Shown piece by piece: positions 14,621 to 29,140 of a stretch of DNA of 64,000 nt. Within the stretch, counting starts at the first letter, position 1, and each line of letters begins with the position of its first letter. This stretch comes from a virus. Taxonomy: Duplodnaviria > Heunggongvirae > Uroviricota > Caudoviricetes. The notes beneath the pieces are model-generated. The model saw only the letters and a list, made by a program, of their open reading frames with translations, searched no databases and was not told the origin of the DNA. The DNA is taken from the IMG/VR virus record IMGVR_UViG_3300006899_000574; one strand, 5' to 3'. The translations under genes and the position numbers were made by a program.

Positions 14621-16627
14621 CTATTGGATTTGCATCACTTTGAATGCCTGTCGTGCGGCATCTATCCGTTTGCGGAAATCGACGTCCGCAAAATCCGGCT
14701 TCTTGCCGCTGGCCTTATATGCCAGGCGCGTCTGTTGCTGTTCATAGCTCACCGATGGCATGTAGCCGACTTTGTGTATGCTGAAGGCGGCGTGTGCCAT
14801 GGCATCACTGACGTCCTTTGCGTGAACTCCGCATTTCGAATTCTCGAAGTCACCTCTGTAGTCGTTGACTCTCATGCCCTTGCTGTGATCAATCTTCTCC
14901 GGGCCCCTTTTGTTCTTTGCTCTCGTGCGGTAGAGGCTGTCGAGATTGTTCCTGACGAAAACATTGGGCCCCACTTTGAGTCTGCCGCTGAGCATTCTGG
15001 AGTAGAGCTGTGTATAGGGCTGGATGTCGATATCCACCGAAGACCTTACGGCATTGATGTCGTTCCTCACCAGATACTGGATGAGGTTGGCGCTTTGGTA
15101 CTGGTCAACACTGACCTGCTCGATGTGAACTCTGCCTTTGTCCCGGAGATCACGGATGAACATCTGGATGGCTTCGAGGTTGATGCCGTTGGGGCCCGGT
15201 GCCACCGCAAATGCGAAGTCGAAGATCGTCGTGGCGGTACCATCTTCCATTTGTTCCTCGTGAGCCATGGCGATGCCTGCGACGTCTCCTCGAACGCTGG
15301 TTGCCAGATCCACTCCGATGTAGCGCGGCGCTGACGGCGCGCGGATCAGCGACAGATCAACTCCGTTCCCTTTTGAAAAGAACAGGTGGCTGACGGCGTT
15401 CCAGATCAAATCCTCCGGGATGGACTTGCTGTCGGCCACAACTGAGGCTTCGACGTTGGGAAGCGTGGGGTCGAAGATCGACGCAATCAGACTGCGTTGT
15501 TGCAGGAACTTGCTCTCGCTGGTGGCGGGCTGGCCCGCGATGTCTTTGATGGACTTCAGCAAGTTGTCTTCAAAAGCCTGTTTGACATCAATTGGAGGGG
15601 ATACCACCAGACCGGGGGCGTAGTTGTGTTCCTCTCCGGGTTCCAGGATACGAGCGGGAGTCTCGCCATCCCCCACGCAGACATGGAAGACCTGGGAGTT
15701 GTCTTTGTGGTATGCGGGGAAAAACTTCTCACAGAGTTCCGGAGCATCCCACTGCTTGCGCCAGCGGAAGTATACCTCTGGCCGGTATTGCATCTTGCTG
15801 ATGATGTGCTGTTCGATCTGCGACTCCGCCAGGTTTGCCGACGTATCCAGCAGTGTGAACGCCAGGTAGTTGTTGCCAACAGTGCCTCGAATACGACTGA
15901 CGGTATCGGTGTAGATGCGGAAAATCTGCTCCTCGGTGGCCCCGGCTTTCTCGATAAAGAAGCCGATCTCTGAGATGAAGGCGCAGATGATGTTGGCGCC
16001 GATGATTGACAGCGCGTCGTCATTACCCGTCACGAGTTGCAGGCCAGATGCCAGCGTGATCTCCCCGACTCTCGCGGCCTCTGAATACACGATGATGTCG
16101 TCTCCAGCGGCTTCCTGCTCTTCTCGCACGTTGTCGCGGAAGTGTGTCTTCTGGAACCTCGGGCTCTGCTCTAGAATCTCGAACAGCGGCTGAATGTAGA
16201 GTTCATACACCTTCTCATACTTGAAGCTCATCAAGTAGATGGAAAGCGCGGAGGTTGAGATCAAATTGTAGGCCCCCGCCATGCTGGTAAGGTGGTGCAT
16301 GTAGACTATGACATACGCCATGAGCAGGACAGATCCCACGCTTTTTCCCATACGGACAGCGCCGTATAACGCCACCTGCGAATACTTTCCGCTGAGGATA
16401 TTACAGAAGTCCTCCTTGACGTGTGCAAAGAGTTTGTTGGCCACTCCCTCCGGAAGCCAGCCGTTGCGGGGGTCGAGGAACTCCTCCGGGCTGGGGGGCG
16501 GTTTGCGAAATGTGTGTCCCTGCAACTGGCGGAGCAACGCAGTGTTGCCGCCGAGGATCTCCTTCACTGCCTGCTGTTCGACGGCACTGAGCTTGTTGAA
16601 ATCAGCGGCAAGATTTTCTGGCAACAC
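14621..16627 (-). CDS. terL: terminase large subunit
   Basis: Walker A-like ATPase GAVRMGKS, C-terminal nuclease-like YIGVDLA..D; 668 aa, a gp17-like size. Confidence 0.85.
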   Translation of the reverse strand: MLPENLAADFNKLSAVEQQAVKEILGGNTALLRQLQGHTFRKPPPSPEEFLDPRNGWLPEGVANKLFAHVKEDFCNILSGKYSQVALYGAVRMGKSVGSVLLMAYVIVYMHHLTSMAGAYNLISTSALSIYLMSFKYEKVYELYIQPLFEILEQSPRFQKTHFRDNVREEQEAAGDDIIVYSEAARVGEITLASGLQLVTGNDDALSIIGANIICAFISEIGFFIEKAGATEEQIFRIYTDTVSRIRGTVGNNYLAFTLLDTSANLAESQIEQHIISKMQYRPEVYFRWRKQWDAPELCEKFFPAYHKDNSQVFHVCVGDGETPARILEPGEEHNYAPGLVVSPPIDVKQAFEDNLLKSIKDIAGQPATSESKFLQQRSLIASIFDPTLPNVEASVVADSKSIPEDLIWNAVSHLFFSKGNGVDLSLIRAPSAPRYIGVDLATSVRGDVAGIAMAHEEQMEDGTATTIFDFAFAVAPGPNGINLEAIQMFIRDLRDKGRVHIEQVSVDQYQSANLIQYLVRNDINAVRSSVDIDIQPYTQLYSRMLSGRLKVGPNVFVRNNLDSLYRTRAKNKRGPEKIDHSKGMRVNDYRGDFENSKCGVHAKDVSDAMAHAAFSIHKVGYMPSVSYEQQQTRLAYKASGKKPDFADVDFRKRIDAARQAFKVMQIQ

Positions 16628-16734
16628 CTGGTATTAGGGAATTTGTTTGACAGCTCGGTGTGCTGTCGTTGTAGTGCAAACCATGAATCAAGACGCAATC
16701 AGCTTCGGAACCTACCGGGGCTTCCACATCACGC

Positions 16735-17052
16735 ATGACAGAGACCCTCCGCGCATCCGTGGATCTGCACTACAAATCCCGGCTCACGGCCAGAGAGCAG
16801 AAAGTCTTTCGACTTACCCGCGAAGGAAAGCTCCAGGCTGGGAAGCTCACCAGCTACATCTCGCGAAAAAGCACATGGCGCGACGGACAGGACTTCACTT
16901 TTCGGGTTCTCTGGGGCACAAGTAAGGCCGCCTGTCAGGAAGGCTATCTTCAATCGTGCATCGACGAATTCTCCTGGAGATTTTCAAATCGAAAAAACGA
17001 GAATATTTTCCACGATTACATGAAGCGGACGGTGCTTGTTAAAACAGCGTAA
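16735..17052 (+). mobile_element. IS1595-family (ISXO2-like) transposase C-terminal tail remnant, copy 1
   Basis: YLQSCIDEFSWRFSNRKNENIFHDYMKRT matches the IS1595 Tnp C-terminus (Y.dEFxFRxNxR). Confidence 0.5.
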
Positions 17053-17056
17053 GAAA

Positions 17057-17611
17057 CTATCTAAATTCATCAATTCCGATGGGTATTGCTTTTGAAGAAT
17101 GGACACGAACTTGATTTATGCGACCGTAAGTATCTTCTACTTTTGGATGCACAGGCAAATCGCTTCGTCCGCCAAATCTGTTCCTATCATTCTTCCTGTA
17201 ATGCTCCCAATCTGGGCCATCGTCTGGTTGTAGATCGCTTTTTCTTGCTTTGAAAACAAGAAATACAGGATCACGCCCAGCGTGAGCTAAGTATGTTCCA
17301 AGACCATTCTTAGAACCAAGAAAAATAAACTGCCCAAGTGGATTCTTCCACACAGATTTTTCTGTTGCAACATCTCTATTCCAGCCAGAATCCAAAATTG
17401 CCTGAGCGTTCTCTCTGCTTGTCGCATGGTATAGAGCTACATAATTATCATCTGGAATGCTGGCTAATCGTTTCCAGTTTCCATTTGGATCGATTGCACC
17501 GTCAATGATGTAGTACCTACCAAAATCATCGTGTTTTTCAATTCGAGAAAAATTTGCTTCATACAGCGATCCGCCGCTCTCATAAAGCCTTTGCAATTCT
17601 ACCAGACGCAT
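17057..17611 (-). CDS. putative H-Y-E class ADP-ribosyltransferase fold protein (PARP/Tpt1-KptA/DarT-like); cargo 1
   Basis: VALYHATSRENAQAILDSGW resembles the HG(S/T)...IL..G NAD-binding motif of PARP/Tpt1/DarT; N-terminus MRLVELQRLYESGGSLYE is shared with the ORF at 18583-18957. Confidence 0.45.
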   Translation of the reverse strand: MRLVELQRLYESGGSLYEANFSRIEKHDDFGRYYIIDGAIDPNGNWKRLASIPDDNYVALYHATSRENAQAILDSGWNRDVATEKSVWKNPLGQFIFLGSKNGLGTYLAHAGRDPVFLVFKARKSDLQPDDGPDWEHYRKNDRNRFGGRSDLPVHPKVEDTYGRINQVRVHSSKAIPIGIDEFR

Positions 17612-17681
17612 ACCTGTATCTTTAGTGATCTGAGGCGATTCTAATGCGTCATAAGCCTGTGTACACTGAGGGATAATTCCG
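17612..17681 (-). promoter_or_regulatory. conserved upstream region of cargo gene 1, including a candidate sigma70-like promoter (TGTACA-16-TAGAAT) and the GGGATAATTCCG motif
   Basis: About 85% DNA identity to the region upstream of cargo gene 2. Confidence 0.3.
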
Positions 17682-17682
17682 T

Positions 17683-17707
17683 AAAAAAAAGGCGGAGGTT
17701 ATCCGCC
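17683..17707 (-). terminator. rho-independent terminator
   Basis: GGCGGA-ggtta-TCCGCC hairpin with an A8 run on the plus strand (T8 on the minus strand). Confidence 0.5.
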
Positions 17708-17733
17708 TCTTGAACAATGGACCGCTCTGCCTG

Positions 17734-18348
17734 TCAGCCGTAGATGACCTCCCCGAAAATCGAGAGTTGCAGTGCGACATCCGCCATAACGGCATCCCAG
17801 TCTCCGGCGTCGTAGAAGCTCGCGGGAGCATCGCCGCGCCACTTACCGTTCTGGATCATGAGGTGGTAGAGTTCGAGGCCCTTGGCGAAGCTCGCGTAGG
17901 TCACCGTCCAGAGCTTCAAGCCCGTCCGCTCATCGGTTTCCTCAACATGCTGGGCCACAGACGCTTTGTAGTCCATAAACTGATCTACTGTGGTCATGTC
18001 CTTTGTGGCGTCTGCGCAGGAGGAGCACAGGCACAGCGCAACGTCGGCCCAGGGCTGACCGTCGCTCCCCTTGCAATCCGAAAGCGGATGTGAGTGGTAG
18101 AGCGAGCCTCCGGGCTCATCAGCGGCGTCTTTACCGCAGGCATAACAGGTGAATTCCGCCCCCAGAGTCTCCTGATCGTGGAACTTAAATCTGCCTTCGC
18201 CTTCGTAGGAGAACTCTGTGCAGATCATGCAGAAACTGTATTCCGGGTAGTTCTCCATGACGTCTTTCGCGAGCTGGAGATAGGTCATGCCTCCCTGACG
18301 TTCTTCCGCAATGCGCTGATCAATTGTTTTTGTCGCTGTTGTTTCCAT
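17734..18348 (-). CDS. Cys-rich hypothetical protein (possible zinc-binding)
   Basis: 204 aa; CMICTE, CYACGK and CLCSSCAD clusters; bracketed by an inverted GGGATAATTCCG pair. Confidence 0.5.
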   Translation of the reverse strand: METTATKTIDQRIAEERQGGMTYLQLAKDVMENYPEYSFCMICTEFSYEGEGRFKFHDQETLGAEFTCYACGKDAADEPGGSLYHSHPLSDCKGSDGQPWADVALCLCSSCADATKDMTTVDQFMDYKASVAQHVEETDERTGLKLWTVTYASFAKGLELYHLMIQNGKWRGDAPASFYDAGDWDAVMADVALQLSIFGEVIYG

Positions 18349-18402
18349 GGAGACACCATATCCCCCGGCACAAAGTTGTCAACACAAAATGCAAAAAAAA
18401 AA

Positions 18403-18414
18403 CGGAATTATCCC
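18403..18414 (+). repeat. GGGATAATTCCG motif in inverted orientation (also at 17670-17681 and 19028-19039)
   Basis: Exact 12-mer three times within 1.4 kb. Confidence 0.6.
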
Positions 18415-18419
18415 GAAAC

Positions 18420-18572
18420 ATGAAGCGTGGGATTATCGGCTCGTATCACCACATCAGCCCGAAGTACCTGCAAGCATACATCGACGAATTTTCCTGGAGG
18501 TTCAGCAATCGGAAGAACGAGAACATCTTTCACGATTTTATGAAGCGAACTTTGCTGGCTACTGCGGCGTGA
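18420..18572 (+). mobile_element. IS1595-family transposase C-terminal tail remnant, copy 2 (50 aa)
   Basis: MKRGIIGSYHHISPKYLQAYIDEFSWRFSNRKNENIFHDFMKRT is the canonical IS1595 Tnp tail. Confidence 0.55.
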
Positions 18573-18582
18573 ACTGGTTTGG

Positions 18583-18957
18583 TCAGTTTACAGTATGATT
18601 TCCAGAGTTCAGTTCGTCCATTTCGGTACCTTCTTTGATCTCAAGTTTATGTTTTCGTGCTATTGTTTCAATAGCTTTTTTCTGCACCTTATTCAAGTGA
18701 TCCCATCTCATTCGCAACCACAGTTTTTTATCATTGGTAATGATGAAATCACGCCAGCCAATGGCTCTCGCATCTGCTCTTATTGAATCATGAAGATTAT
18801 CATTTTTATCTCGATTAAGAATTGTAAAAGCACCAAGACGATGATTCTCCCATTTTGACACTTCACCTTCTGGTGAAAGCCAGAACGATTCATAAGTAAA
18901 AGATTCATACAATGATCCGCCACTCGCATAAAGTCGTTGTAGTTCTACCAGTCTCAT
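18583..18957 (-). CDS. hypothetical protein; cargo 2 (N-terminus shared with the ART-like gene)
   Basis: MRLVELQRLYASGGSLYE then divergent sequence; 124 aa. Confidence 0.5.
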   Translation of the reverse strand: MRLVELQRLYASGGSLYESFTYESFWLSPEGEVSKWENHRLGAFTILNRDKNDNLHDSIRADARAIGWRDFIITNDKKLWLRMRWDHLNKVQKKAIETIARKHKLEIKEGTEMDELNSGNHTVN

Positions 18958-19039
18958 GTCCTTTGTATCTTTAGTAAACAGGCAGGCGATCCAGTTCGAT
19001 CAGACGACATAACTGGATGTACTCTGCGGGATAATTCCG
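18958..19039 (-). promoter_or_regulatory. conserved upstream region of cargo gene 2 with the GGGATAATTCCG motif
   Basis: Duplicate of 17612-17681. Confidence 0.3.
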
Positions 19040-19072
19040 AAAAAAAATCCCCCGGCTGTGACCCCGGGGGAT
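19040..19072 (-). terminator. rho-independent terminator downstream of the capsid gene
   Basis: TCCCCCGG-ctgtga-CCGGGGGA hairpin with an A8 run on the plus strand. Confidence 0.55.
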
Positions 19073-19097
19073 TGCTCAAGTAGGCTCTTCAGAGGGA

Positions 19098-20654
19098 TTA
19101 CTTGATGTTGTTGATTTGCAGGAGCTTGATGAAGCCCGGCTGAATCACGTTTTCGCCCTCAACATGCGCGAGGACAACTTCACGATACATCTGTGGGTAG
19201 TCCAGACCAGCACTGAGTTCTGTCAGTGTGCCGAACGCCAGAGACGGTTCGCCTTCTTCTTGCGCGTTTTTGTATACACAAATCGCTTCTCCAGAAGATG
19301 AAGTTCCCGCTACTGTTGTGGAGTGACTTGGAGTCACGTAGACGTCGATGTCCGCAAGTTTACCCGCGAGATAGGAAGCGCCAACCTTCTGTTGAGAAGA
19401 AGCGGATTTCCACTGGAGGTTCTTACGGAAGTAGTTCACGGCTTTCGGGTTGCCCACGATTTTCGTGATCTCACCACGTTGCAGTGCATCGAAGATATCG
19501 CCACCGATGTTATCGATGGTTGTCAGGATACGCTGAGCGTGGTTAAAGTCGTTGTCGTCGTTTCCACTTGCCGGATCTGCGTCGAACACATATGGAGTGC
19601 TCTGTCCCGCTACGCGTCTTGCGAGCTGGAAGGCTTTGAAGTCACGGCGTTTTGCCATCTCGTCGCCTGCGCGCTTGATGATCTGCTCGTCGAAGTCGCC
19701 GAGTCCAGTGGTCTCGAACGTCAGTTCGGACATCTTGGAGTAAGCGATGCGAATCGGATGCATCATGAGGTGGAATGGACGCTTGTAGACTTTCAGCTGA
19801 ATGTCGTTGTAAGACGAGTAGTTCGCGCTGTTTTCTGCATCCCATACTGCCTGCGCACGGATTTCAACACCAAGTGCTGGAGCCGTAGTCAGAGTCACAG
19901 AGAATGTTCCCGCTGTGTAGCTCACGGTTCCCGAAGACACAGTGGCTGTTGTGCCGCCGCTACCGTTCGGAGTTCCGATGAGGTTTCCCGCACCGTCGTC
20001 TGTGCCCACAAACGCATTACCTACAACGATTTGCACGCTGTGTGGCTTGATATTTGTAGGAGAGAATGTTCCTGTGAACGTTGTAGTCGCGCCGTCACCT
20101 GTGGAAGGTGTGCCGTTGATGGTCTGGAAAGCTCCGCCGTAATCCGCAGTTACTGCGCCGTAATCGTAGATACGATTGCCAGCTGTAGCGCCGCGAATAG
20201 ATGTTCCGTAGACTCCGTCTACATAGAAGAGCGCGTCGTTTACAGACGTAAGTGCCCATTCTGTGAAGACGTCAGCACGGTTGCTGTTCGCCACGCCGAT
20301 GCGGACGATGCGCAACACGTTCTCTGGAGACGTGCCGAAAGCCGAGGAGATTTGGGTTCCGGATTCCCGGATGTGAAGCATGTGTCTGCGCTGGTTTTCC
20401 AGGAGCAGTGCTGTGTTCCGTGCAATGGTAGGAGACTTGGCGTAAACGCTTTCCAGATATTGTCCTTCTGGTCTGCGGTTCCATTCTTCTACAAGACGGT
20501 CCAGAGCTACAATGCGTTTTTCGATGTACTGCTCGCGAGACGCGGCAGGACGATTTTCAGTCAGTGACTGCTGTGCAGGAAGTCGGCGTCCGTGCTTGTA
20601 GGCAACGGGTGCTGGGAGACGACCGGCAACAGGCGCATTTCTGAGTCGTTGCAT
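19098..20654 (-). CDS. putative major capsid protein
   Basis: 518 aa; the ORF is bracketed by strong terminators at 19040-19072 and 20792-20826 (the upstream one separates it from the scaffold-like gene); Gly/Thr-rich insertion domain; lies downstream of a scaffold-like gene. Confidence 0.5.
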   Translation of the reverse strand: MQRLRNAPVAGRLPAPVAYKHGRRLPAQQSLTENRPAASREQYIEKRIVALDRLVEEWNRRPEGQYLESVYAKSPTIARNTALLLENQRRHMLHIRESGTQISSAFGTSPENVLRIVRIGVANSNRADVFTEWALTSVNDALFYVDGVYGTSIRGATAGNRIYDYGAVTADYGGAFQTINGTPSTGDGATTTFTGTFSPTNIKPHSVQIVVGNAFVGTDDGAGNLIGTPNGSGGTTATVSSGTVSYTAGTFSVTLTTAPALGVEIRAQAVWDAENSANYSSYNDIQLKVYKRPFHLMMHPIRIAYSKMSELTFETTGLGDFDEQIIKRAGDEMAKRRDFKAFQLARRVAGQSTPYVFDADPASGNDDNDFNHAQRILTTIDNIGGDIFDALQRGEITKIVGNPKAVNYFRKNLQWKSASSQQKVGASYLAGKLADIDVYVTPSHSTTVAGTSSSGEAICVYKNAQEEGEPSLAFGTLTELSAGLDYPQMYREVVLAHVEGENVIQPGFIKLLQINNIK

Positions 20655-20791
20655 ATAGTAACCTTTTGGTTTGTTTGATTGAGGGCCGAACTCACTCTCT
20701 CAGCCTGCGAGCCTTGGTCCGAAAATCTTAGCCGGGCTGTCGGATTCAGCCCCCTTGCGCTTTTAGTGTGGGAAGATTTCAGAGATCAGGG

Positions 20792-20826
20792 CAAAAAAAA
20801 AGCCCGGGGCAACCCGGGCTTTTCGT
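20792..20826. terminator. bidirectional rho-independent terminator
   Basis: A9-GCCCGGGG-caa-CCCCGGGC-TTTT. Confidence 0.55.
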
Positions 20827-22729: not shown

Positions 22730-23113
22730 TCAGGCCTGAAGCGTGCAGGGAGTCGTCATCAGAGATGAGAAGCTCAAGGCATGTGCGGTGACGTTTCGGA
22801 GGCCGCGCAGTGCTTGTTGTTGCCGCAGGCGGCCCGAGGGGTTCATGGAGTGCAACACCACAACAGCGGGGCACAACAGTTCGTGCGCCTCCATCCACAA
22901 CGTGACTTCGTAACCGGTGTTCTCCACCCTGGTCACCATGACTTCACCACCGAGATCGTGATCGAGAAACGCGATGTCGAAACTCTGGGACGTCAGTGCC
23001 TGTATGGCTTCAGCCGCTGTGTGAACAAAGACAACGTCGTGTCCGGGCGTCAGCCATCTGCTGAAAGCCCGGTGCCGGTTGTCATCATCGTCAAGAAAAA
23101 GGATGCGCATCAA
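22730..23113 (-). CDS. stand-alone CheY-like receiver (REC) domain protein
   Basis: ILFLDDDD acidic pocket, phospho-acceptor FLDHDL, VVLHSMNP; 127 aa. Confidence 0.55.
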   Translation of the reverse strand: MMRILFLDDDDNRHRAFSRWLTPGHDVVFVHTAAEAIQALTSQSFDIAFLDHDLGGEVMVTRVENTGYEVTLWMEAHELLCPAVVVLHSMNPSGRLRQQQALRGLRNVTAHALSFSSLMTTPCTLQA

Positions 23114-27606: not shown

Positions 27607-29096
27607 ACGTAACGCGCAAGTTCGCCAAATACCCAGCGTTTGGCATCATAGCCGTCAATCTGCCAGTATTCTCCGGGCTCAACCCACTCATCGCCGTCTT
27701 CGAAGCCTTGCGGCTCGTCGGTCATTACTTCTCCGGTTTGCTCGTCGTAATAGACATCGAAGATATTGGCGTCTGCCCATTCCTTGACAATTGCCGTGTT
27801 GCTCTGGAAGGTGCCCTCTCCGGCGGAGGGACCGTGCATGAGATTGGCGCTGGCGTTTGCCCAGGCCTGCTGGACTTCTTCTGGCATTTTCGCTGTGAAG
27901 TACGCCACGACGTCTTTCTTCAAGGTGTCCTGCGCGCTCTCGGTGAGAGATGACATGATTTCGCTCACGTCATCAGGGGAATACAGAAATCGATAGAGCC
28001 CTTTTGAGGCCTGCTCCATAAGTGTAACGCCCTTCAGAAACTGTTCTGAAGTTGCCTGATAAACGGTTTCCAGCTCACTTACATAAGTGGGCTGTGAGGT
28101 GGCGTCTGCCAGATGTTTCTCAGCGGTTGCCGCCAGGTCTCCAAATTTCTGGACCGCGTCTGCTGTGCGCTTCTGTAAGGCAGGGACATCTGCATGAGCC
28201 TCCACGTATCGCGCCTTGCTTTGGACCATGAACAGTGTGCGACTTTCCTCTACTTTGGTGTCCTGCACGCTCTCAGTAAGTTCCTCTTCGTCATCAAAAC
28301 TATCGAGGACTGCGTACAGTCCCTTCACGTCTTCGGATGGATACCAAGTCCACAAGTTGGATTCTTCCTGAACAATCATGTCGTGCCCGTAGGTTACTTC
28401 CACGGAGAGAAATGCTGAAGAAGTACTTCCACCGGGCGTAGAGACACTGTCGGGAAGTGGCTTGCGAATCCAGCCGCCACTCACTACGAAGCCATGCGAC
28501 TCAGCATGGGTGATGCGAATAGTCTGGCTGAACTTCTTTGTGGTGAGTTGCTGTTCGCTACGCATTTTCTGGCGCAGTTCTTTCACAACTTCAGGATGTA
28601 ATTTGACTTTGATGGTGCCGAGGTCAATCTCGTCGTTCCTCTCGTCTTCTGAGGAGATTGAATCGTTGTAAGATATCAGTTGGATTTCTCCTCGCATGGA
28701 GTAAGTGTCGGGTTTACCAGCTGGCGTGAGGTGCGCTTTGAAAAACACCTGGACGCCGGCACCGCCGCCTTCCTGTAATTTTCCTTTGGCTTCCACGTAT
28801 CGCGCCTTGCTTCGGACATCCACAACCTCCGAGAAGCCCCGCATGGCGGCGATCTCAAAGCCGTGCTGAAGGGACTCCAGAGTTGCGATCTTCTGGCCCC
28901 TGGCATTGAAAGCCTGCCGGCCGTCGATAAACAGCGTGCGACTTTCCTCGACTTTCTCCGGAATATCGGCGCCGGCTTTACGCGCCATGGTGAGGCCCGC
29001 CGCCAGGCGTTGCTCGGGCTTCATTTTCTTCCCGTGCTTGCTGTGTTTGAGATGAGAGATGTTTTTCCCCGGATCGCGGGAGGCTTGGAATGGCAT
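27603..29096 (-). CDS. hypothetical protein
   Basis: 497-aa ORF. Confidence 0.5.
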   Translation of the reverse strand: MPFQASRDPGKNISHLKHSKHGKKMKPEQRLAAGLTMARKAGADIPEKVEESRTLFIDGRQAFNARGQKIATLESLQHGFEIAAMRGFSEVVDVRSKARYVEAKGKLQEGGGAGVQVFFKAHLTPAGKPDTYSMRGEIQLISYNDSISSEDERNDEIDLGTIKVKLHPEVVKELRQKMRSEQQLTTKKFSQTIRITHAESHGFVVSGGWIRKPLPDSVSTPGGSTSSAFLSVEVTYGHDMIVQEESNLWTWYPSEDVKGLYAVLDSFDDEEELTESVQDTKVEESRTLFMVQSKARYVEAHADVPALQKRTADAVQKFGDLAATAEKHLADATSQPTYVSELETVYQATSEQFLKGVTLMEQASKGLYRFLYSPDDVSEIMSSLTESAQDTLKKDVVAYFTAKMPEEVQQAWANASANLMHGPSAGEGTFQSNTAIVKEWADANIFDVYYDEQTGEVMTDEPQGFEDGDEWVEPGEYWQIDGYDAKRWVFGELARYV

Positions 29097-29111
29097 GTAG
29101 CTTTAGTGGGC

Positions 29112-29140
29112 AAAAAAAATGCCCGCTATGTCTAGCGGGC
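29112..29140 (-). terminator. terminator hairpin (first of about four hairpins in the 29097-29277 spacer)
   Basis: A8 run then GCCCGCTATGTCTAGCGGGC. Confidence 0.4.

Follow-up and report, generated by a model that had tools for sequence, protein, structure and literature searches.

What is the origin of a 12-nucleotide sequence, GGGATAATTCCG, that recurs unchanged beside several small genes of a phage? The window examined here is a single stretch of 64 kb of phage DNA, in which an initial annotation had noticed the 12-mer three times and proposed that it could be a binding site for a regulator or recombinase, or the boundary of a mobile unit. An exact scan of the window recovered the same positions and orientations, 17670-17681 (+), 18403-18414 (-), and 19028-19039 (+) (copies 1, 2, and 3), and no site beyond these three, so the sequence is not frequent at random positions. 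Not even one copy appeared in any of 100 dinucleotide-preserving shuffles of the window, which rules out a chance origin of the three sites. When up to two mismatches are allowed, the window contains 12 sites (3.7 expected), and the nine additional sites have no context in common with the exact ones. A search of the window against Rfam returned no family.

We conclude that the 12-mer, which reads CGGAATTATCCC from the outside in, is very probably the tip of an IS1595-family inverted repeat, and that two decayed, passenger-carrying copies of such an element landed in terminator T-tracts. This makes the find a new case of an established type of element rather than a novel regulatory signal.

Cassette A

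The segment bounded by copies 2 and 3, and its immediate flanks, contain the following features.

18403..19039: cassette A, 637 bp, a transposase-deleted IS1595-family element of the mobile-insertion-cassette type with both inverted-repeat tips
18403..18414 (plus strand): motif copy 2, the left inverted-repeat tip, which reads CGGAATTATCCC on the plus strand and matches the left tips of the related elements L033, L052, and L105
19028..19039 (plus strand): motif copy 3, the inverted-repeat tip on the right; L033, L048, and L052 have an identical right tip
18393..18402: A10 run on the left flank, in which the final 8 nt make up one target-site duplication copy
19040..19047: A8 run to the right of the cassette, which is the second duplication copy and doubles as the U-tract in the terminator of a 518-aa gene
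18420..18572 (plus strand): transposase remnant A, the last 50 codons of an IS1595-family transposase gene
18583..18957 (minus strand): passenger gene A (124 aa), convergent with remnant A
19046..19073 (minus strand): terminator hairpin of the 518-aa gene (10 pairs, -20.2 kcal/mol), whose U-tract is the putative insertion target of cassette A

The true pair of ends is formed by copies 2 and 3, not by copies 1 and 2: the tips face outward, and A8 is present on both flanks. These ends constitute a perfect inverted repeat of 13 nt (CGGAATTATCCCG and CGGGATAATTCCG), and are flanked on both sides by AAAAAAAA, an 8-bp target-site duplication. Such a homopolymer at a terminator could have matched in part before insertion, which makes the duplication weaker evidence than a complex 8-mer. 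The GC content of cassette A is 0.419, compared with approximately 0.55 in its flanks. The identity of the tips, the remnant of the transposase, the duplication in the flanks, and the boundaries in composition are observed.

Copy 2 had been described as abutting the ATG of a small open reading frame that encodes a transposase tail, and this ATG is indeed found at 18420, with 5 nt (GAAAC) in between. The encoded remnant matches the Pfam family DDE_Tnp_IS1595 (PF12762) at positions 121-152 of 153 (39 bits, with a cut-off of 27; E 1e-9). In a tblastn comparison with the transposases of L033 and L032 (303-304 aa), it aligns with residues 258-303, and it matches annotated IS1595 transposases in plasmids. 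It is only 42-65% identical to any transposase found. The transposase-derived sequence therefore belongs to DDE_Tnp_IS1595, which places the cassette in the IS1595 family as a derived member. At 13-17 nt, the left repeat of cassette A is shorter than the 25-38 nt seen in intact relatives.

Genes of this region are on the minus strand, on which a strong hairpin with a U8 run stands immediately before copy 3 (-20.2 kcal/mol) and another before copy 1 (-15.6 kcal/mol). The earlier observation that copies 1 and 3 are downstream of hairpin terminators and about 60 nt upstream of passenger start codons was borne out, with measured distances of 58 nt for copy 1 and 70 nt for copy 3. The T10 run on the minus strand at 18393..18402 is preceded only by a weak hairpin, which arises from the inverted-repeat tip itself (-3.3 kcal/mol, z -0.66). 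Runs of A or T of at least 8 nt are found at only seven places in the 64-kb window, and three of these seven adjoin copies of the motif. No search supported the names "capsid" and "terminase" for the neighboring 518-aa and 668-aa proteins.

Cassette B and the Cys-rich gene

The remaining copy of the motif, copy 1, belongs to a second and more damaged cassette, which is separated from cassette A by a Cys-rich gene.

16945..17681 (approximate): cassette B, a related element in a second copy that is truncated on the left, with its right tip, a passenger, and the last 36 transposase codons
17670..17681 (plus strand): motif copy 1, the inverted-repeat tip at the right end of cassette B, which on the minus strand follows the hairpin, U8, and one A of the Cys-rich gene terminator
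16945..17052 (plus strand): transposase remnant B, the last 36 codons, with 78% protein identity to remnant A
17057..17611 (minus strand): passenger gene B (184 aa), with an ADP-ribosyltransferase-fold domain after an 18-aa leader
17691..17712 (minus strand): terminator hairpin of the Cys-rich gene (-15.6 kcal/mol, z -4.06), whose U-tract is the putative insertion target of cassette B
17734..18348 (minus strand): 204-aa Cys-rich gene, which matches phrog_2355; context only, located in neither cassette

Cassettes A and B have three repeats in common (D1-D3, 75-81% identity), and the GC content of cassette B is 0.415. A left tip of cassette B was sought and not found; its left end is missing. 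Between the two transposase remnants, 15 of 36 codons differ only synonymously and seven nonsynonymously. The remnants diverged under purifying selection, in keeping with an origin from two elements that were once functional. The 64-kb window has no further IS1595 transposase match.

The Cys-rich gene had been viewed as cargo bracketed by copies 1 and 2. This view was not upheld: the gene lies in phage DNA of native composition (GC 0.549 for segment 17682-18402, and 0.549-0.553 when its flanks are considered) between two low-GC cassettes (0.419 and 0.415). Because copies 1 and 2 belong to different cassettes, the inverted pair around this gene consists of the facing ends of two neighbors. In a strain variant (L029) from SRR8797213, the tail of cassette A is joined directly to a UTR and gene start resembling those of cassette B, and the Cys-rich gene and both inner motif copies are absent. 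This junction indicates that recombination has occurred in the region.

Full-length relatives with the same tips

An element in Treponema succinifaciens plasmid NC_015386 (L033, 1063-3031) carries the exact 12-mer at both tips and is flanked by an 8-bp duplication, TTCCAAAA; WP_013700533 is a Treponema transposase of this clade. The closest transposase relatives among IMG/VR viral contigs are L047, L048, L051-L053, and L105, and in these relatives TTGACA or a near variant comes after each tip. In L048 (1379 bp, duplication AATTTTAA), the right tip is the exact 12-mer, and the left tip has one mismatch. Tips one position off the 12-mer are found in L047 (3078 bp, tip CGGAACTATCCC, duplication AATTGTTT), at the right end of L051 (2465 bp, tip CGGAATCATCCC, duplication AAAAAAAA), and in L053 (3386 bp, tip CGGAATCATCCC, duplication AAAAAGAT). 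The left tips of L052 and L105 are the exact 12-mer, as is the right tip of L052; the 8-nt flanks of L052 agree at only six of eight positions (TTATATTT and TTAATATT) and are not a clean duplication.

In total, five elements (that of Treponema plus L047, L048, L051, and L053) combine the 12-mer or a one-mismatch tip with a perfect 8-bp duplication. Where both ends could be read, duplications are perfect (8/8) in L032, L033, L040, L041, L047, L048, L051, and L053. More-distant relatives in Megaera, Geminicoccaceae, and Sulfitobacter have tips of the form nGnnATyATCCC and perfect 8-bp duplications, and they also have a transposase gene facing a convergent passenger beside the right repeat. Relatives of this transposase occur in 488 IMG/VR contigs, and IS1595-type transporters may therefore be an under-appreciated route by which accessory genes enter phages and prophages.

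Passenger genes

The proteins encoded by the two passenger genes begin with a common 18-residue leader, MRLVELQRLY(A/E)SGGSLYE, which contains three L-x-E motifs and is modelled as detached from the domain that follows it. Passenger A shares 35% identity with the N-terminal half of passenger B, and a homologue of passenger A (79% identical) is found in a contig of 42% GC without insertion sequence context. A shared 5' UTR and 18-codon leader on one side, and the transposase tail on the 3' side, surround passenger bodies that are much more divergent. The shared 5' UTR and leader are not accounted for by transposition alone. The sequence ACTAAAGATACA is conserved upstream of both passenger genes, and when tested as a wider phage motif, it exhibited no enrichment.

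Members of the ADP-ribosyltransferase (ART) superfamily use NAD+ and have a catalytic triad of H-Y-E or R-S-E. Passenger B has the ART fold, and in an alignment of 11 sequences, H62 and Y107 are invariant, whereas no third member of a triad clearly stands out; D130, D134, and Q167 are invariant as well. Searches of the passengers against Pfam, PHROGs, PADLOC, and NCBIfam gave nothing significant, the sole match being a weak one to KptA (E 0.04), and a single-sequence AlphaFold2 prediction of a passenger reached a pLDDT of only 33.

Searches for close relatives and empty sites

A megablast search with positions 16500-20800 for related annotated phages returned no match, and protein-based searches of IMG/VR with the 518-aa and 184-aa proteins found no syntenic site. 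Exact-protein look-ups identified the same phage only, in JGI samples 3300005002, 3300005039, and 3300045330 and in SRR8797213, and the contigs of these four samples contain no version lacking the cassettes. An empty-site version of the locus was likewise not found in related phage contigs; we therefore infer the insertions rather than observe them.

Searches for other copies were similarly negative. A scan of IMG/VR with CTGNGGGATAATTCCG gave 26 matches, all in unrelated contexts, and patterns combining the tip with the UTR or with the inner repeat had no matches in IMG/VR or in metagenome contigs. A word-indexed protein search with the 50-aa remnant had no match, and none of the searches yielded a close full-length transposase, defined as one with more than 65% identity to the remnant. 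The sole match in a scan of genome contigs was a decayed fragment of 46% identity, located in a Chloroflexota MAG and without matching ends. No second copy of cassette A or B was found in another context.

Proposed history and alternative explanations

These observations identify the 12-mer as the outermost 12 bp of terminal inverted repeats in an IS1595 clade, at which the DDE transposase of the element is predicted to bind and cleave. The order of events is one that we infer, as would be any present-day mobility. Two related transporter insertion sequences would have inserted independently into the T-tracts of two intrinsic terminators, with 8 bp presumably duplicated at each insertion. Cassette A would then have lost about 0.8 kb, comprising the inner left repeat and roughly the first 253 transposase codons, so that the pair of tips would remain, together with the A8 duplication, the final 50 codons of the transposase, and the convergent 124-aa passenger. 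Cassette B probably lost its left end as well, and would have kept the right tip, the 184-aa ART-fold passenger, and 36 transposase codons.

A bolder extension, which we regard as unlikely, is that cassette A and the intact ancestors of both cassettes represent IS1595-derived cassettes that are still active through host-encoded transposases, and that move ART-type genes for counter-defense or host takeover between phages. Such elements might prefer terminator U-tracts as harmless sites with a ready-made transcription context, and the 18-aa leader might be a targeting or processing signal, for example, for packaging into virions.

The location of copies 1 and 3, just after terminators and 58-70 nt before start codons, is also what might be expected of a phage promoter element or operator that restarts or controls transcription of the passengers, as in T4-type cassettes made of a promoter and a stem-loop. 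A weak sigma-70-like sequence (TGTACA-16-TAGAAT, 9/12) starting 5 nt inside copy 1 is consistent with this idea, and the TTGACA that follows the tip in full-length relatives suggests that the repeat may carry an inward-facing -35 element. However, a promoter or operator would recur in a fixed orientation before several transcription units, whereas the 12-mer has only three copies, none of them before any other gene in 64 kb, and copy 2 is inverted and adjoins a transposase remnant. Promoter-like sites are not in excess in the region (4 versus 2.8 in shuffles), the GC boundaries coincide with the motif, and in unrelated bacteria and viral contigs, elements that encode a transposase and have target duplications end in this 12-mer. 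A regulatory role is thus highly improbable, and of the functions initially suggested for the motif, those of recombinase binding site and boundary of a mobile unit are the ones that stand.

Which mobile unit the motif bounds was a separate question. Copies 1 and 2 do form a perfect 13-nt inverted repeat, 719 nt apart, around the Cys-rich open reading frame and its terminator, and the initial annotation was correct about this arrangement. Nevertheless, their CGG tips aim at the gene, which is the wrong direction for the ends of one element, given that the tips aim away from the interior in every intact relative. Moreover, the enclosed segment has native GC content and matches a phage protein family, and no duplication is formed by the sequences just outside copies 1 and 2. 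A composite transposon in which both cassettes together move this gene would require the outer left end of cassette B, which is missing. Mobility of the Cys-rich gene by either arrangement is exceedingly improbable.

Alternatively, the motif might mark the boundaries of cassettes that are exchanged by a route other than IS1595 transposition, such as homologous or site-specific recombination between conserved flanks, with the transposase fragment merely a flank. The conserved UTR, leader, and transposase tail around divergent passengers are compatible with this possibility, as is the junction in the L029 variant. Yet exchange of this type leaves unexplained both the identity of the tips with IS1595-family ends and the A8 duplication, and no recombinase gene was seen among the neighboring open reading frames scanned. 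As a full replacement for transposition, it has very little likelihood. Recombination after insertion is compatible with our preferred explanation, two decayed IS1595-family elements, and is not an alternative to it.

Comparison with known systems

The interpretation as IS1595-family elements replaces a mystery motif with two remnants that have defined ends, target sites, and passengers, and corrects the pairing of the repeats. It suggests that passenger-carrying insertion sequences bring accessory genes into a phage genome at terminator T-tracts, and that one such passenger is an ART-fold domain otherwise found inside giant polyvalent proteins. The tip CGGAAyyATCCC-TTGACA provides a practical signature for such elements, including those that survive as decayed remnants.

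Subgroups of the IS1595 family are assigned according to the transposase catalytic motif (DDEK, DDER, and so on), which is in the part deleted from the window copies. The ends of the ISNwi1 and ISNha5 subgroups of ISfinder have the consensus sequences "ggnnatTAT" and "CGGnnTT", and CGGAATTAT fits both; the end-consensus string was not found in the literature searched. These subgroups have 8-bp direct repeats and include passenger-carrying members, and both features fit the window elements.

ART domains of the polyvalent proteins of phages and conjugative elements (Pfam ART-PolyVal context) were compared with passenger B only. The latter differs in that it is a stand-alone protein with an 18-aa leader and matches no Pfam ART model.

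Transporter insertion sequences of the CGGAAyyATCCC-TTGACA clade (L033, L047, L048, L051, L052, and L053) resemble the window copies in their identical or one-mismatch 12-bp tips, their AT-rich 8-bp duplications (one of which is AAAAAAAA), their homologous transposase C-terminus, and the placement of passengers between the transposase gene and the right repeat. Unlike these elements, the window copies are missing about 85% of the transposase gene along with the inner left repeat, and cassette B lacks any left end. The ART-fold protein and its shorter paralogue, which are the passengers in the window, have no relationship to those of the relatives examined.

Members of the IS1595 family usually have 8-bp flanking duplications (PMC8101967), and transporter insertion sequences, mobile insertion cassettes (MICs), and also solo inverted repeats are recognized classes (PMC3129680, PMC11891212). 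MICs and MITEs are nonautonomous derivatives of insertion sequences that are mobilized in trans (PMC3129680). An autonomous IS1595 element encodes a full transposase that includes an N-terminal zinc finger and a DDE catalytic core, whereas only the last 50 (A) or 36 (B) codons are present here. Cassette A has terminal inverted repeats with clade-specific tips and an 8-bp target-site duplication, though a homopolymer at a terminator, and has the layout of a transporter insertion sequence or MIC in that the 124-aa open reading frame lies between its repeats and the transposase gene is deleted. It differs from typical MICs in its shortened left repeat and in that no second copy was found that would indicate mobilization; copies with new duplications were absent from the window, IMG/VR, metagenome contigs, and genome contigs, a weak negative result because these collections evidently lack this phage. 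Cassette A fits the definition of a MIC in that it ends in inverted repeats, has a target duplication, lacks a transposase, and carries one passenger; its length of 637 bp and its coding gene make it a MIC, not a MITE.

Occurrence and gene setting of the 12-mer

The initial annotation had placed the 12-mer GGGATAATTCCG at three sites, and our count in the 64-kb window gives exactly three copies, at 17670-17681 (plus strand), 18403-18414 (minus strand) and 19028-19039 (plus strand). The 12-mer is absent from every dinucleotide-preserving shuffle. When up to two mismatches are allowed, nine additional scattered sites appear, with no common context. The window is a phage genome, with a T4-like portal match, a tail protein, ThyX, an SbcC-like protein and a DNA-transfer protein.

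All credible genes around the copies lie on the minus strand. On this strand, a strong hairpin and a U8 run precede copy 3 and likewise copy 1, as had been described. The spacing to the next start codon, reported as about 60 nt, is 58 nt for copy 1 (before the 184-aa ORF) and 70 nt for copy 3 (before the 124-aa ORF).

Features around the 12-mer copies (window coordinates, strand, description, GC content where relevant)
14621-16627, minus, 668-aa ORF, no function assigned by searches; GC 0.553
16628-16944, intergenic DNA; GC 0.552
16945-17681, cassette B; GC 0.415
16945-17052, plus, transposase remnant B
17057-17611, minus, 184-aa ORF (passenger B)
17670-17681, plus, copy 1
17682-18402, segment with the Cys-rich gene; GC 0.549
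17734-18348, minus, 204-aa Cys-rich ORF
18403-19039, cassette A; GC 0.419
18403-18414, minus, copy 2
18420-18572, plus, transposase remnant A (50 codons)
18583-18957, minus, 124-aa ORF (passenger A)
19028-19039, plus, copy 3
19098-20654, minus, 518-aa ORF, no function assigned by searches; GC 0.535

The edges of cassettes A and B are sharply drawn by the change in GC content. The profile therefore indicates two low-GC cassettes, with the Cys-rich gene between them in DNA of native composition. The 317 nt of native GC from the truncated end of cassette B to the start of the 668-aa gene (16628-16944) are long for phage intergenic DNA, and contain no convincing ORF and no Rfam match.

Ends of full-length relatives

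We searched for full-length relatives of the remnant transposase and examined the ends of the elements that encode them. An IS1595-family element of the Treponema succinifaciens plasmid NC_015386 is bounded by a 28-nt inverted repeat tipped at each end with CGGAATTATCCC, and the flanks carry a perfect 8-bp duplication, TTCCAAAA. The left repeat of this element is tandemly duplicated (L033, the plasmid locus, 1063-1124), with two copies 36 nt apart; the 8-bp duplication pairs with the outer copy only. With a profile built from five of these transposases, relatives turned up on 488 IMG/VR contigs, and IS1595-family elements appear common in viral or prophage contigs. The table covers the closest relatives, 54-60% identical to the Treponema enzyme.

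Ends of the closest IMG/VR relatives (locus, tip, flanks, element length)
L047: tip CGGAACTATCCC; flanks AATTGTTT, perfect 8 bp; 3078 bp
L048: right tip exact 12-mer, left tip one mismatch; flanks AATTTTAA, perfect 8 bp; 1379 bp
L051: tip CGGAATCATCCC; flanks AAAAAAAA, perfect 8 bp; 2465 bp
L053: tip CGGAATCATCCC; flanks AAAAAGAT, perfect 8 bp; 3386 bp
L052: each tip matches the 12-mer exactly; flanks TTATATTT / TTAATATT, 6/8; no length delimited by the search for repeat plus duplication
L105: exact 12-mer at left tip; contig ends before right end

The ends of these relatives match, and the literature agrees (8-bp duplications are usual on the flanks of IS1595-family members; PMC8101967); the 12-mer is therefore the clade-specific tip of an IS1595-family terminal inverted repeat. 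The two short plus-strand ORFs encode the C terminus of a DDE transposase of the IS1595 family. Remnant A matches positions 121-152 of 153 of Pfam profile PF12762, above the curated cut-off, and aligns with residues 258-303 of 303-304-aa transposases; remnant B is a second copy, 75% identical to it. In both cassettes, the passenger ORF is convergent with the remnant.

Arrangement of the two cassettes

Intact elements all have their CGG end on the outside. By this rule, copy 2 (CGGAATTATCCC on the plus strand) is the left end of an element that extends rightward and is closed by copy 3, and copy 1 closes, on the right, a different element located to its left. The suggestion of a mobile-unit boundary or recombinase site was therefore correct in kind but not in geometry, since the pair is formed by copies 2 and 3. 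The proposal that copies 1 and 2 bracket the Cys-rich gene as a unit fails, because their CGG ends point towards the gene, not away from it, and the gene is a bystander in native-GC DNA. A regulator site is unsupported.

Cassette A comprises 637 bp with a perfect 13-nt inverted repeat, and AAAAAAAA directly adjoins both tips. This duplication is a homopolymer, which limits its weight as evidence; A/T runs of at least 8 nt number seven in the whole window, three of them abutting 12-mer copies. Removal of the cassette and one 8-bp copy restores 'hairpin-T10-gcattttgtgTTGACA...', in which a canonical terminator leads into the region's best sigma-70-like match (10/12), just upstream of the Cys-rich gene. 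The left tip lies 49-68 nt from the transposase gene start in full-length relatives, but only 5 nt from transposase codon ~254 in cassette A, so a deletion of about 0.8 kb has removed the intervening DNA together with the inner part of the left repeat. With its left repeat shortened, the cassette's mobility today is doubtful. The tip at 18403-18415 (minus strand), flagged by a terminator scan, folds as a small hairpin, CGGGA-UAA-UUCCG, followed by T10; at -3.3 kcal/mol, it folds no more stably than shuffled sequence does.

Cassette B retains its right tip, adjoining hairpin-U8-A. Everything left of transposase codon ~268 is gone and no left tip is detectable; this cassette is certainly immobile.

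Remnants A and B differ at 28 nucleotides over 36 codons, with 15 codons changed only synonymously and 7 non-synonymously, and in the passenger leader 6 codons differ synonymously and 1 non-synonymously. This synonymous excess indicates divergence under purifying selection. We infer that two related, once-functional elements inserted independently, rather than that one arose by recent internal duplication. Neither an empty site, a second copy of either cassette nor a close autonomous element was found, a weak negative given that the collections scanned by pattern lack even the source phage.

Two contigs show variation at the locus. A strain variant, L029 (Logan SRR8797213), matches the window from 19413 to 18494 and breaks inside the cassette A transposase tail; in its last 45 nt, 15 novel nucleotides lead into a cassette-B-like UTR and start (CACTAAGATACAGGTATGCGTCTGGTAGAAT; compare window 17627). 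This strain thus lacks, or has other sequence in place of, the inner ends of both cassettes (left tip of A, right tip of B) and the Cys-rich gene with its terminator. The junction indicates that the cassettes recombine. L028 (JGI 3300045330), from the same phage, shows no difference from the window across cassette A, but all similarity ends 50 nt inside the Cys-rich gene (window 18299, last 44 nt); the break is due to strain variation or else to a join made in assembly.

Passenger genes

Both passengers have a common 5' UTR block, ACTAAAGATACA (17612-17626 and 18958-18975, minus strand), and a common 18-codon leader, MRLVELQRLY(A/E)SGGSLYE, with two or three L-x-E motifs, that is not present on homologous domains elsewhere. 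Outside the leader, the two proteins are only 35% identical. At 29096-29140 (minus strand), a hairpin-T8 terminator is followed after 4 nt by ACTAAAGCTAC, which differs from the UTR block at one position and directly abuts the ATG of a 497-aa gene. At two mismatches the block is not enriched (7 sites versus 7.2 expected), so this likeness may be coincidence. Separately, a 126-aa gene upstream of a 620-aa gene (about 22730-23110, minus strand) has a precomputed Pfam match to PF20274 (cREC_REC) in the public record.

Residues 24-180 of the 184-aa protein form a domain that recurs in giant polyvalent proteins with ART-PolyVal, NUDIX, GNAT and sigma-70 domains. An AlphaFold2 model from an 11-sequence alignment has a pLDDT of 82 and places the leader, at low confidence, apart from the domain. 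All sequences in this alignment share H62-A-T64 and Y107. Foldseek and NCBIfam yield only weak hints of an ART kind. The 124-aa protein aligns with the N-terminal half of its 184-aa counterpart at 35% identity. Its homologue (79% identical) on a 42%-GC contig (L045 / L046; ENA ERZ17987536, ERZ27283013) has a start that overlaps the upstream gene's stop and is followed by two tRNA-Leu genes; no inverted-repeat tip, transposase tail or other insertion-sequence feature occurs in this context. Such a genome may be the origin of the 124-aa passenger.

Comparison with known elements

IS1595-family members with passenger genes are called transporter IS (PMC11891212, PMC3129680). Several of the IMG/VR elements (among L047-L126) carry one or two passenger genes of 182-783 aa, and none of the passengers examined in related elements is a relative of the 124-aa or 184-aa protein. 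In more distant elements, from Megaera, Geminicoccaceae and Sulfitobacter, the tips follow the pattern nGnnATyATCCC and the 8-bp duplications are perfect; between the left and right repeats lie first the transposase gene and then one or more passenger genes convergent with it. The locus thus holds the remnants of two transporter IS of the IS1595 family, and one of them has the form of a mobile insertion cassette. That these elements reside in phage terminator T-tracts and carry putative ART-fold accessory genes is of modest side interest; the kind of element is already known.
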